Assembly: GCA_965203985.1 (NCBI GenBank)
Contig: CBDBDS010000002.1
Coordinates: 612,809 to 676,808 of the forward strand
Origin: Dehalococcoidia bacterium
GTDB lineage: Bacteria; Chloroflexota; Dehalococcoidia; Lucifugimonadales; UBA3495
Direction: 5' to 3'
Length of the DNA stretch: 64,000 bases
Both the position numbers and the translations under genes were made by a program. The notes under the pieces are model-generated. The model had not been told where the DNA came from. It ran no database searches and saw only the letters and a program-made list of their open reading frames with translations. Positions 14,724-63,521 of the stretch are shown here, one piece after another. Positions within the stretch are counted from its first letter, which is position 1; every line of letters begins with the position of its first letter.

Positions 14724-14750
14724 CCATCCCGTCCATCCTGTCCATCCATG
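14724..14750. repeat. Interspersed repeat family C copy (CATGGATGSACAGGATGGAC type, reverse orientation)
   Basis: CCATCCCGTCCATCCTGTCCATCCATG. Related copies are at 50222-50240, 62710-62735 and 62897-62922. Confidence 0.8.
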
Positions 14751-14858
14751 TAAAAGACAAGTTGCGTGCGCGTGAGGTCCGGCCCGCCTTGACAACCCCA
14801 AGCCCCAAGTTACAATCGCCCGGAGGCCTCCTAGACACGATACCAAGGAGAAATTGCA

Positions 14859-43891: not shown

Positions 43892-45298
43892 TTGCCAACC
43901 AACACAGCATCACTCTTGCGATCAAACCCTGCCGGCCGACTGTTTGCGTTGGCCGGCATATTCTTGTTGACCCTGGCCGTCGCTGCCTGCGCTCCATCTG
44001 ACGACGCATCGAGCAGCGAACCCTGGGCGGCTCCCCTCGCTCCTACAACCGAGGCGTTCCCAACTCTGGAACCCGCCGCCGATCTGCCCACGGCAGCCCT
44101 CGCCGACGCCGCCACGCCATTGCCGACGGCTGCGATGGCTGACGTGGCGACCGCTCTCCCCACCGTGGCACCGCTGATGTCCTCCCCCGAAAGCATGGTG
44201 CAAACCGTTCCCGACGCCGCGGCTGAGGAGGCGCGCACGAAATACCAACGCCTGCTGCGCGCCCAGTGGGACACCGACTTCACGCGGACGACAATCTCTT
44301 TCGACGAGATCATGACCGGCGGACCGCCCAAGGACGGCATCCCGTCAATCGACGACCCGCAGTTCGAGTCGATAACCGATGCCGACCTCTGGCTTGACGA
44401 TCTTGAGCCCGTGCAGGTGGTGGACCTCAACGGCGACGTTCGCGCGTACCCCGTGCAGGTGATGGTATGGCACGAACTGGTCAACGACACCGTGGGCGGA
44501 GAACCGGTGGTCATCACCTTTTGACCGCTCTGCAATACCGCCTTCGTGTACAGGCGGACGCTCGACGACCAGACCCTCGATTTCGGGACCACCGGCGCGC
44601 TGCGCGACAGCAACCTGCTGATGTACGACCGCCAGACCGAGACGTGGTGGCAGGAAGTGGGCGGCGAGGGCGTCATCGGCCACTTCGCCGGTCGCAAGCT
44701 GGAACAACTCTACCTGTCAATCGTGTCGTGGGCAGACTTCAAAGCGGCTCACCCCGACGGCCGGGTGCTTTCGCGGCCCGATTCCGGTCGTGCCTACGGA
44801 CAGAACCCATACGCCGGCTACGACCGGCCGGGCAGCGAACCGTTCCTGTTCGAGGGCGAAAAAGACCCCCGGTTGCCGGCCGTGGAGCGGGTGGTGGCCG
44901 TGGAACGCGGCAACGATGCCTGGGCCGTGTCATTCACCACGCTGGCCGAGGAGCGGGTGGTCACCGCATCGGTAGCCGGCGAGGACATCGTGGTGTTCTG
45001 GTCGCCGGGAACCGCGTCCGCGCTGGACTCCGGATCCATCGCCAGGGGACGGGACGTAGGCACCGCCGGCATCTTTTCCCCGCGAGGCCCCGACGGCAAC
45101 GCGCTGACCTTCGCGCCGGACGCCGAAGGCCGCATCATCGACGAACAGACCGGGAGCCAATGGGACATATTCGGACGCGCCATCCACGGGCCGCTGCAAG
45201 GCGAGCAACTGACCCCGGTGCCGGGTCGCATCGGCCAGCTGTGGTTCTCGTGGGCGGTGTACCGGCCGGATACCGTCGTGTATCCCGCCACGAGCTGA
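43892..45298 (+). CDS. DUF3179-family lipoprotein with one in-frame TGA (44522-44524) at the conserved CPLC cysteine: candidate selenoprotein (otherwise a nonsense-disrupted gene)
   Basis: The tracked ORFs 43892..44524 and 44546..45298 share one frame and are separated only by the TGA. Joined, they read 'DGIPSIDDPQF...AYPVQVMVWHELVNDTVGGEPVVITF[TGA]PLCNTAFVYRR...SNLLMYDRQTETWWQ', colinear with DUF3179 as I remember it. Lipobox 'LAVAAC'. The start is 3 nt after the permease stop. Confidence 0.7.
44538..44557 (+). other. SECIS-like hairpin downstream of the DUF3179 TGA
   Basis: CCGCCT-TCGTGTAC-AGGCGG: a 6-bp perfect stem with an 8-nt loop containing GU. The stem starts 13 nt after the TGA. Confidence 0.4.
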
Positions 45299-45308
45299 GC
45301 GACCCTGC

Positions 45309-46157
45309 ATGCCCGTGCTTAAAGTAGTGATCGTCACCGCCTTAGCTGCATTAGCGGTCCTTACGCTGACCCTGTCGGCTTGTGGTCAGACGACCGGCGA
45401 CCCATCTGAGAACGGTGCCCAGGCCGCAACACCCAACATTGGGGCAACCGTGCAGGCTGCACTGCGTTCATTGGAAAACACCCAGCTTCCGACCGTTGCC
45501 CAGAGCGCCGATCCAACCACTGCACCCGTGCAGCCTGCGACGCCTGCCACCGTCCCGAATGCCGTCTCGTCTTCCAGCCCGCCGTCGGACGCAACCCACA
45601 CGCCAACCCCTCGACTGGCCGCCACGGCTACGGCAATGTCCTCGCCCACGTCGCCGCCAACGGTGGAGGTCACGCCGACCGCCGAGATCGTCCGGTCAAC
45701 GGCAGTACTCCCAACCGCGACCCCTGAAGGAGCCGGTCAGCGGGCACCAGCGCCGATGTTCGCGGGGACCTTCATGGACGGCAACGATTATCAGCTCGAT
45801 GACACCGTCGGCACCCCGACGTTGTTGATGTTCTGGGCTCCCTGGTGACCCCATTGCCAGCGGCAGTTGCCGTCTGTACAGGGTTTCCACGAGGACTACA
45901 ACGGAGTCGACGCCGACATAGTGGGGATCGCAATAAGCGCGCCCGAACCGGAAGTCCGCGCGCTGATAGAGAAGCAGGGTCTGACCTTTCCCGTCGCCTA
46001 TGACCCGGCTGGACAACTCTCGAGCGTGTATGGCGTCTCCGGCGTGCCTTTCTACATCTTCATCGACAAGGCCGGTCGTATCGCCCACACCATTCCAGGC
46101 GCCCCGAACGACGTAAACACGATCAAAAACTGGATCGAGGACCTGCAGGCGGAATAG
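45309..46157 (+). CDS. TlpA/ResA-like thioredoxin-fold lipoprotein with an in-frame TGA (45846-45848) at the first Cys of the CxxC motif: candidate selenoprotein
   Basis: The tracked ORFs 45309..45848 and 45867..46157 share one frame. Joined, they read 'GTPTLLMFWAPW[TGA]PHCQRQLPSV...GLTFPVAYDPAGQLSSVYGVSGVPFYIFIDKAGRI', the classic 'FWA.WC.PC' redoxin layout. Lipobox 'LSAC' plus a long Pro/Thr/Ala tether. Confidence 0.75.
45860..45873 (+). other. SECIS-like hairpin downstream of the thioredoxin TGA
   Basis: GCGGC-AGTT-GCCGT: 5 pairs including a terminal G-U, with loop AGUU. It is extendable by A-T and C-G pairs across a bulged C (45858-45876). The stem starts exactly 11 nt after the TGA. Confidence 0.4.
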
Positions 46158-50197: not shown

Positions 50198-50221
50198 CAT
50201 CCCATTTTGCACGGGTTTTTA

Positions 50222-50293
50222 CATGGATGCACAGGATAGGCACGATGGTACTGGTCGGAGGCTCTCTAGATTCCGGCTTTCGCGGGAATGACG
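50222..50293. repeat. Family C copy plus family B copy downstream of copA
   Basis: CATGGATGCACAGGATAGG (50222-50240) and GATTCCGGCTTTCGCGGGAATGACG (50269-50293). Confidence 0.8.
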
Positions 50294-62644: not shown

Positions 62645-62709
62645 TCTATCGTCCTATCGTCCCCGCAAGGATTGGCGCCCCACGCGCGCCCAGTTTGGCG
62701 AAATCGAGG

Positions 62710-62922
62710 AATTTGCATGGATGCACAGGATGGACATGATTGGATTGATGCGCTGCTTTGCAATAGTGCTTCCGGGTCGAAGCGGGTAACCACGGCGCCC
62801 CGTTGGCGGCAGGGCGACGGGAAGGAACCATTCATCTTGGCTATAGCATGGCGACCGAAAACGGGCCGGTTTCCATCATCCAACTCCTACCATCCCGTTC
62901 ATCCTGTGCATCCATGCAAATT
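62710..62922. repeat. MITE-like element with ~26-bp family C terminal inverted repeats
   Basis: AATTTGCATGGATGCACAGGATGGAC (62710-62735) versus GTTCATCCTGTGCATCCATGCAAATT (62897-62922). It lies immediately upstream of ispD. Confidence 0.85.
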
Positions 62923-63062
62923 GCTCCTCCTCGGCAAACTGGGTATGCGTGAGGGATTGGCGCGATTGGCGTTGAAGCCTCACATAGTTTATGATTTAGT
63001 CGGTCTGTGGATCAATATCACCCTAAGGGAACATCTGCGGAGCGCGTTACTCCAAAGGGGGC

Positions 63063-63521
63063 ATGATGGCACTGGAAATGGCCTATCACGTGGAAACGTA
63101 CAGCTCGGGAACCCACGGCAGAGCGATCTGCAACGCCCGCACGCATCACTGGGTCGCTGACGACGGCGGCGGTGATGCCGTGGGAGCCGGGGAATTGTTC
63201 CTCTCCGGCATCACCGCCTGCGCCGTGAATATGGTGGAGCGGATTGCGCTCACTGATGACGCCCCGGTGGACTTCATGGAAGTTACCGCCGAAGCCTTCC
63301 GTGACTCGGAAGCGACCCCCGGCGACGTGAGCCTGTACGCCGATGTGCGTATCCACTTCAAGATCTGGGGCGTGGACGACGACCAGGGCAACTACCTGGT
63401 GGACACGTGGAAGAAGCGTTGACCCCTTTATGGTTCGGTCGCCGTGGCGACCCCCAGCACTTCCGTCACCGCCGAATTCGTTGCCGACGCCCGGCCCAAG
63501 CACGCGGGGCGCGTCGCCTGA
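63063..63521 (+). CDS. OsmC/Ohr-family protein with an in-frame TGA (63420-63422) at the second conserved Cys: candidate selenoprotein
   Basis: 'GELFLSGITACAVNMVE' carries the first family Cys. The tracked ORF stops at '...DTWKKR[TGA]', and the same frame continues 'PLYGSVAVATPSTSVTAEFV...' for 32 codons to a TGA at 63519-63521. This reproduces the family 'K.CP.y..l' C-terminal motif with TGA in place of Cys. Confidence 0.6.
63437..63452 (+). other. SECIS-like hairpin downstream of the OsmC-like TGA
   Basis: GGTCGCC-GT-GGCGACC: a 7-bp perfect complement, effectively 5-6 bp with a CGUG/GU apex. It starts 14 nt after the TGA. Confidence 0.4.

Follow-up and report, generated by a model that had tools for sequence, protein, structure and literature searches.

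A probable selenocysteine codon at the C-terminal redox position of an OsmC/Ohr-superfamily gene in a SAR202-type Dehalococcoidia genome

Does a TGA codon end an OsmC-like gene of a Dehalococcoidia bacterium, or is it read as selenocysteine (Sec)? The gene lies in a 64-kb stretch of contig CBDBDS010000002.1, and this whole stretch is called the window here. An open reading frame (ORF) of 119 amino acids (63063-63422, + strand) ends in YLVDTWKKR-TGA. Past that TGA the frame stays open as PLYGSVAVATPSTSVTAEFVADARPKHAGRVA, up to a second TGA, as a preliminary description of this DNA had pointed out. If the first TGA is read as Sec, the product would run from residue 120 onward as U-PLYGSVAVATPSTSVTAEF. 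An open extension of 32 codons is unremarkable at 63% GC, and the signal of the single sequence is modest. However, comparison with 131 other TGA loci lifts the case far above chance. By this comparison, it is very likely that 63063-63521 is one gene for a 152-residue redox enzyme of the OsmC/Ohr superfamily, in which codon 120, UGA, specifies Sec by means of a selenocysteine insertion sequence (SECIS). The coordinates of the features are collected in Table 1.

The relatives of the protein were recognized by protein search, which gave 381 sequences. Dozens of them are exactly 119 amino acids long, and approximately 35 are full length, i.e., 145-152 amino acids with 55-64% identity. The full-length homologues carry the motif WK[RKQ]R-C-PLYGSV[AV]TAT, and their Cys is placed exactly in the TGA column.

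Codon 120 was then read in DNA. The genome scan covered one genome per species and gave 250 loci, of which the best 80 were read for their codon state. These 80 loci all come from Dehalococcoidia, SAR202 or Chloroflexota metagenome-assembled genomes (MAGs), many from sponges. TGA was found at codon 120 in 80/80, and it is followed by 25-33 further open codons encoding PLYGSVAVATPSTSVT.... The metagenome scan was seeded with Cys forms, and its 78 scorable loci showed TGA (51), TGC (23) or TGT (4). Together, 131 TGA loci were found beyond the window (80 genome and 51 metagenome loci), and the frame is open in all of them. They span many assemblies and technologies, closed long-read chromosomes included. 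Of these loci, L001 (JAJDTP010000010) is 99% and L048 98% identical, and the exact 119-residue product of the window has no record in the contig index.

Selection on the two sides of the TGA was compared by Nei-Gojobori counts over 118 distinct TGA-form sequences. In the 20 codons upstream, the synonymous (pS) and nonsynonymous (pN) proportions were 0.53 and 0.19, i.e., pN/pS 0.35. The 19 codons downstream gave pS 0.49, pN 0.16 and pN/pS 0.33. In the PLYG codons directly 3' of the TGA, pS was 0.63 and pN 0.013, so that synonymous change is free while the protein is almost fixed (pN/pS 0.02). Such equal purifying selection on either side of the TGA excludes both a real stop and a pseudogene.

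The codons around the UGA were uniform in the same 118 sequences. The Arg codon before it is CGT in 104 and CGC in 14, and never CGG, CGA or AGR, despite 63% GC. The base 3' of the UGA is always C, from a Pro codon (CCN). This Arg-codon/C context (region 63417-63425 in the window) may be a requirement for recoding. The true stop of the gene is TGA as well, 99 nt after the Sec codon at 63420, and a hairpin with GU follows the first TGA only.

The SECIS is an RNA hairpin placed just 3' of the UGA within the coding sequence (CDS) of bacterial selenoprotein genes. The preliminary description had reported a 7-bp stem with a GU apex starting 14 nt past the TGA, and the perfect inverted repeat is indeed present. 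Its GU falls on nt 25-26, counted from the U of the UGA. As a background, approximately 2% of window positions have a perfect 7-bp hairpin that starts 4-30 nt downstream, and of 62 such hairpins in the window, this one alone has a 2-nt GT apex.

The genome loci gave 74 distinct sequences in which the pairing was followed. Standard pairs fill 518 of 518 cells of the stem, and the apical GU is invariant. Compensatory double changes occur in three of the seven pairs, in 22 cells. The outer pair is G-C in 64 sequences, C-G in 9 and G-U in 1, the fourth pair is C-G in 68 and U-A in 6, and the pair closing the apex is C-G in 67, A-U in 4 and G-C in 3. In 500 shuffles, neither the paired fraction nor the number of doubly changed cells nor the covariation score came up to the observed values. 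Sliding the register by 1-2 columns or by +3 left 28-52% of cells paired, and the -3 slide left 84% (6 pairs, no covariation). The RNAalifold consensus recovered the 7-bp stem and, beneath a 3-nt bulge, two G-C pairs. Both of these pairs are invariant because they lie in Gly and Pro codons, and they are neutral on pairing. The six codons of the hairpin (SVAVAT) had a synonymous divergence of 0.14, against 0.5-0.7 in the flanks. This suppression of approximately fourfold indicates RNA-level constraint on top of protein constraint.

The hairpin goes together with the TGA. In the metagenome scan, each of the 51 TGA loci combines 7/7 pairs with a GT apex and encodes SVAVAT, whereas each of the 27 Cys-codon loci has an AC apex, keeps 4-6 of the 7 pairs and encodes SVATAT. 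The Val providing the apical GU therefore marks the Sec forms. The same hairpin was found, essentially unchanged, at the distant loci L162-L164 (approximately 30% protein identity), which have TGA and PLY[GR]TVAVAT. The distant family members P0237 and P0190, 30% and 34% identical to the alignment reference P0001, have this combination of TGA, peptide and hairpin. The covariation, the invariant GU apex and the tie to TGA support the reading of this putative element as a bacterial SECIS, and the SECIS proposed in the preliminary description has thus gained comparative support.

The SECIS of Escherichia coli fdhF has its upper stem-loop 11 nt from the UGA, a bulged U17 and essential G23/U24 in the apical loop (PMC8659212). 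Both hairpins are stem-loops just 3' of the UGA in the CDS, with an upper part of approximately 16-17 nt and a conserved apical G and U. However, the spacer here has 14 nt against 11 nt, and the GU is shifted to nt 25-26 from 23-24. The 7-bp stem has no bulged U, and a 3-nt bulge lies below it instead. By this analogy, the hairpin would resemble a SelB-binding element.

OsmC and Ohr are peroxide-reducing proteins with two redox cysteines, the N-terminal one peroxidatic and the C-terminal one resolving. With Cys placed at the TGA, the product scored 35 bits on the Pfam OsmC profile (PF02566; cutoff 27.5) and covered its positions 1-94 of 100. Cut at 119 amino acids, it reached only positions 1-67 and 24.4 bits, below the cutoff, so the domain is completed only by read-through. 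The window protein scored 15.6 bits on the Ohr model TIGR03561 (cutoff 88.85) and 14.4 bits on NF052637, the model of E. coli-type OsmC (cutoff 240), i.e., below both cutoffs.

An AlphaFold model was made for P0001, a Cys variant 95% identical to the window protein (predicted local distance difference test, pLDDT, 80.9). The model has OsmC topology. Helix 42-64 carries C53, and residue 120 marks a kink where helix 106-119 gives way to helix 121-129. The latter helix and strand 134-140 are encoded past the TGA and rank among the best-predicted parts of the model. In the Foldseek search of the PDB at E <= 0.001, only OsmC/Ohr/YhfA structures were hit (6mjn, 1lql, 9jxc, 1qwi), at 10-20% identity.

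The redox residues were located by phmmer against PDB sequences. Cys53, in GITACAVNM, lies opposite the first cysteine of Ohr, and E44 lies opposite the Glu of the Ohr PEQLF motif. Residue 120 falls on the C-terminal Cys-Pro in both Ohr (6mjn, 4noz) and the Mycoplasma pneumoniae OsmC-like protein 1lql. These are the two places at which the preliminary description had put the first cysteine and the TGA. Among 58 diverse family representatives, Cys53 is the sole invariant cysteine, and R20 and E44 are kept in at least 90%. In Ohr/OsmC, Arg and Glu stand beside the peroxidatic Cys, and YhfA is without both (PMC8945050). The window protein is thus like Ohr/OsmC in its fold, in two aligned redox positions, in E44 on the Ohr active-site Glu and in the conserved R20/E44. 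It is unlike Ohr in the low identity given above, in the predicted C-terminal Sec instead of Cys, and in the PLYG that follows instead of P-Y/V-S.

Two other genes with TGA at a redox Cys position were claimed for the window, and both are real. Their TGA codons, at 44522 and 45846, are 18.9 kb and 17.6 kb from the OsmC-like one. The first gene encodes a DUF3179 protein, and 13 nt past its TGA is a hairpin, CCGCCU/AGGCGG, with an 8-nt loop that contains GU. The second gene encodes a lipoprotein with a thioredoxin-like domain. Its hairpin, GCGGCA-GU-UGCCGU, starts 11 nt past the TGA, and its GU is flanked directly by the stem, like that of the OsmC hairpin. In both hairpins, GU is found approximately 21-26 nt from the U of the UGA. 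DUF3179 (UxxC/T) and thiol-disulfide isomerase-like proteins (UxxC) were listed as known selenoprotein families in a 2026 review. The SAR202-type Dehalococcoidia genome of the window thus has three or more selenoprotein genes in a span of 19 kb.

The machinery for Sec was tied to the case in the preliminary description, and its support comes from a near relative rather than from the window. An orthologue 96% identical to the window gene (L006), with the TGA and the hairpin, is placed on MPNC01000002.1, which belongs to the SAR202 bin87 (MPNC00000000). The GC content is 62.8% in bin87 and 63.3% in the window. For bin87, Table S4 of Slaby et al. 2017 gives COG1921 (SelA) 3, COG3276 (SelB) 1 and COG0709 (SelD) 1, and according to the text of that paper, most sponge-symbiont bins have SelA and SelB together.

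Several observations weigh against Sec at codon 120. No SelA, SelB or SelD was detected when the 19 largest window ORFs were scanned with Pfam, no tRNA gene of any kind, and so no tRNA-Sec, was found in the 64 kb, and no tRNA was found in the flanks of 60 related loci. However, the window is 64 kb of a genome of approximately 4-5 Mb, so that missing Sec machinery there is uninformative. The 51-nt hairpin region alone folds at -15.7 kcal/mol (z = -1.93), and 12 of 200 shuffles were equally stable. A loop of 2 nt is sterically unusual, and in the minimum free energy structure the closing pair is opened to a 4-nt loop, yet this pair covaries. The Rfam scan of the whole window gave no match, which has little weight as no matching curated family exists. 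Finally, a metagenome Cys variant with the hairpin intact was confirmed in DNA at L081 (TGC at 579-581), on the scaffold that encodes P0001. A second variant, P0274, is seen at the protein level only; it has Cys followed by SVAVAT, and its first 119 residues are those of the truncated P0007. Either Sec was recently converted to Cys in these two and the change segregates in populations, or they are errors of assembly. They carry Cys with the Sec-type downstream sequence still present, so that Sec is not strictly indispensable.

Other explanations of the TGA were also considered. If it were a genuine stop, the 119-residue protein would be functional, and the hairpin, which is G+C-rich and just past the stop, would be a terminator, attenuator or other RNA signal. 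The public gene calls for these loci all end at 119 amino acids, as this explanation predicts. However, it leaves the nearly equal pN/pS after and before the TGA, the fixed PLYG and the frame open in 131/131 loci without a reason, and the truncated product, besides falling under the Pfam threshold, goes without one helix and one core strand of the fold. A terminator was rejected, because no T-run follows the hairpin, the terminator scan was blank there and the downstream sequence is coding. A genuine stop is thus very improbable. A pseudogene, or a TGC or TGT miscalled as TGA by sequencing or assembly, would be suggested by the TGC on the 95%-identical scaffold L081 and by the second Cys variant P0274. 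Against it stand the 131 independent TGA loci from many assemblies and technologies, closed long-read chromosomes among them, and the strict company of TGA with a covarying hairpin missing from the Cys forms of the metagenome scan. The preliminary description had held random nonsense mutation or sequencing error to be unlikely, and on these data the chance is practically negligible.

The UGA could also be read through without Sec, by a code in which UGA means Trp or Gly or by a near-cognate tRNA inserting Cys, Trp or Arg, with the hairpin as a generic stimulator. UGA followed by C is a leaky context of termination in E. coli, and C always follows the UGA here. The lack of tRNA-Sec in the window and in the flanks of the 60 loci would also fit. 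In some database translations, the Sec column holds W (P0235) or R (P0150), followed by the Sec-type YGSVAVAT; these are probably gene calls under another genetic code, or real substitutions. An alternative code was rejected, since TGA is the normal stop of 22/58 predicted genes in the window, including products with complete Pfam profiles such as a Cys/Met PLP (pyridoxal phosphate) enzyme. The homologous residue is always Cys and stands in a redox motif, two more Cys-position UGAs with GU hairpins occur in the window in listed selenoprotein families, and SelA, SelB and SelD are reported for bin87. By analogy, the size of the hairpin, its spacing from the UGA and its apical GU would also be those of a SelB-binding element. 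Read-through without Sec is therefore considered highly unlikely.

OsmC-like selenoproteins are already known from the sea. They were reported from the Sargasso Sea (Zhang, Fomenko & Gladyshev 2005) and from GOS (Global Ocean Sampling) data (2008), and reviews of 2022 and 2026 give one such family only, with the motif UxxT (COG1765/PF02566). The gene in the window could be one more copy of this family, modelled as NF041052, 'OsmC-related (seleno)protein'. Both share the OsmC superfamily (PF02566), a single domain of approximately 140-150 amino acids, one redox Cys replaced by Sec, a SECIS hairpin within the CDS right after the UGA and an occurrence in marine metagenomes. NF041052 is also the top NCBIfam match of the window protein and, at E <= 0.001, of 34/58 family representatives. 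However, the window protein scored 17.7 bits against a cutoff of 95, and ten distant relatives scanned individually gave only weak matches of 20-28 bits. The sequence AACY01145085 from the supplement of the 2005 paper reads ...PAPLAYIVAGIGF-U-LLTQLKRY...AKQGCFAENL.... With U changed to C, it scored 157.4 bits on the same model. Its Sec is at the N-terminal cysteine of the first helix (AGIGF-U-LLTQL), and its C-terminal Cys (AKQGCFAENL) is retained. In hhalign, a weak match, the Sargasso Sec is set opposite Cys53 and not opposite residue 120. In the window protein, Cys53 is kept and Sec is predicted at the C-terminal [KR]-U-PLY, whereas the known family has GF-U-LLT at the N-terminal site. Neither redox position of the window protein, C-A-V-N or U-P-L-Y, fits UxxT. 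It therefore lacks both defining features of the UxxT family and shows the opposite arrangement of Cys and predicted Sec. Membership in the known family has only a slim chance.

The preliminary description had supposed that OsmC-like Sec proteins were already noted in marine surveys. This is right for the superfamily and not for the position of Sec, so the window gene is less 'already noted' than had been held. No description of a C-terminal-Sec OsmC form was found in the literature and curated models searched. The nearest sequences are the Cys members (P0015-P0059; L082-L107), which are 55-64% identical over the full and equal length and share GRAICNAR, ACAVNMVER and WK.R-x-PLYGS. They differ in TGC/TGT instead of TGA, SVATAT instead of SVAVAT, an AC instead of a GU apex, and 4-6 instead of 7 pairs. 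It seems evenly balanced whether these TGA forms are an undescribed and widespread selenoprotein family of the OsmC superfamily, with selenium at the 'resolving' site, opposite to the sole recorded family.

A mechanism can be proposed for the gene and its product. During translation, the hairpin would recruit the complex SelB-GTP-Sec-tRNA(Sec), and Sec would be inserted at codon 120 in place of termination by release factor 2 (RF2). The UGA at 63519, without such a hairpin, would act as a real stop. Ohr/OsmC proteins have hydroperoxide reductase activity with a two-Cys intramolecular-disulfide mechanism and lipoyl-protein reductants (PMC8945050). The Arg20/Glu44/Cys53 constellation of these reductases appears to be retained, and Sec120 would take the place of the 'resolving' cysteine. 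From family resemblance, the protein is probably a hydroperoxide or related reductase. Its most likely chemistry would be the reduction of a hydroperoxide or a similar two-electron redox step. Cys53 and Sec120 would form a selenenylsulfide on the way, and an external dithiol donor could then reduce it.

Table 1. Coordinates of the described features in the window
Feature	Position	Strand	Remarks
OsmC-like selenoprotein CDS (predicted)	63063-63521	+	152 codons, Sec at codon 120; true stop TGA 63519-63521
In-frame UGA, putative Sec residue 120	63420-63422	+	C-terminal 'CP' redox-cysteine position of OsmC/Ohr
Arg20 codon to Glu44 codon	63120-63194	+	Arg20 63120-63122, Glu44 63192-63194; candidate equivalents of the Ohr/OsmC catalytic Arg/Glu
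Cys53 codon (TGC), N-terminal redox cysteine	63219-63221	+	Helix 42-64; aligned to the first (AC) Ohr cysteine
Upper stem-loop of putative bacterial SECIS	63437-63452	+	GGUCGCC (63437-63443), GU (63444-63445), GGCGACC (63446-63452); 7 bp
Possible hairpin extension	63432-63454	+	GG (63432-63433) with CC (63453-63454), 3-nt 5' bulge 63434-63436; RNAalifold consensus
DUF3179 gene	43892-45298	+	TGA 44522-44524; VVITF-U-PLC; read through, PF11376 positions 1-292 of 292, 325 bits
Lipoprotein gene, AhpC/TSA-Redoxin/thioredoxin-like domain (ResA/TlpA-like)	45309-46157	+	TGA 45846-45848; FWAPW-U-PHC
Sigma-70-like promoter match, TTGGCG-18-TATGAT	62966-62995	+	68 nt upstream of ATG; consensus scan, 1 site against 0.4 expected; weak

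The start of the gene is marked by two successive ATG codons, at 63063 and 63066. A Shine-Dalgarno-like AAGGGGG (63055-63061) ends 1 nt before the first ATG, and most homologues start with M-[AS]-x-L-E. Judged from these sequences, the second ATG, 63066, may be the real start.

In L001-L050, the upstream genes, divergent from the OsmC-like gene, are CysS, IspF, a 148-residue ORF and IspD, and a gene of the Na+/H+-exchanger family is placed downstream. Synteny was dropped as a functional clue, since the order changes in loci more distant than these. Much of the region between ispD and the OsmC-like gene is occupied by a 63-nt inverted repeat (62678-62740 / 62892-62954), with arms 79% complementary and 151 nt apart. 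Its core, the 22-mer TTTGCATGGATGCACAGGATGG, has four copies in the window at up to 2 mismatches (0 expected), counting those at 14733-14754 (-) and 50218-50239 (+). No exact match of this core was found in any of 161 loci compared. The dispersed repeat may be a miniature inverted-repeat transposable element (MITE) or an element like the repetitive extragenic palindromic (REP) sequences.

To gauge the size of the family, 1.84 billion cluster representatives were searched with a profile; 388 proteins passed E <= 0.001, and 172 passed E <= 1e-10. Among the best 150 of the 388, 48 end exactly one residue short of the Cys column (...K.R), 53 continue across it as C-P-[LIVM]-Y, and 49 are fragments or unclassified. 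The Sec forms would make up about half of the family sequence clusters. Among the continuing proteins are multi-domain fusions of 250-714 amino acids with a CPIYTT-type motif; among the representatives P0134, P0158, P0170 and P0248, several are multi-domain, with 370-714 amino acids and the motif C-P-I/V/M-Y-T-T. In the databases, the gene calls listed for the TGA form all stop at approximately 119 residues, and the NCBI records of the Sec forms are 'OsmC family protein' or 'hypothetical protein' of 119 amino acids (MFQ6027482.1, MCH9671806.1, MCY4416016.1). The TGA form is missed by NF041052, and these records would be mended by a model of the family that has U at its C-terminal site. Besides the 80 genome loci, many metagenome contigs from soil and sea carry the form.

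The SECIS hairpin is nearly unchanged across proteins of approximately 30% identity and dictates the peptide VAVAT. An RNA structure is thus seen to fix a peptide, i.e., VAVAT in the Sec forms against VATAT in the closest Cys forms. If Sec at residue 120 is true, either the two residues would have exchanged their catalytic roles, or Sec would have been selected to speed the resolving or re-reduction step. With two OsmC-superfamily selenoprotein families that have Sec at opposite redox sites, the residue that attacks the peroxide would become experimentally approachable. The deep ocean and sponges are rich in SAR202 and related Dehalococcoidia, and three selenoprotein genes within 19 kb would mean that this lineage invests in selenium for its redox defence.

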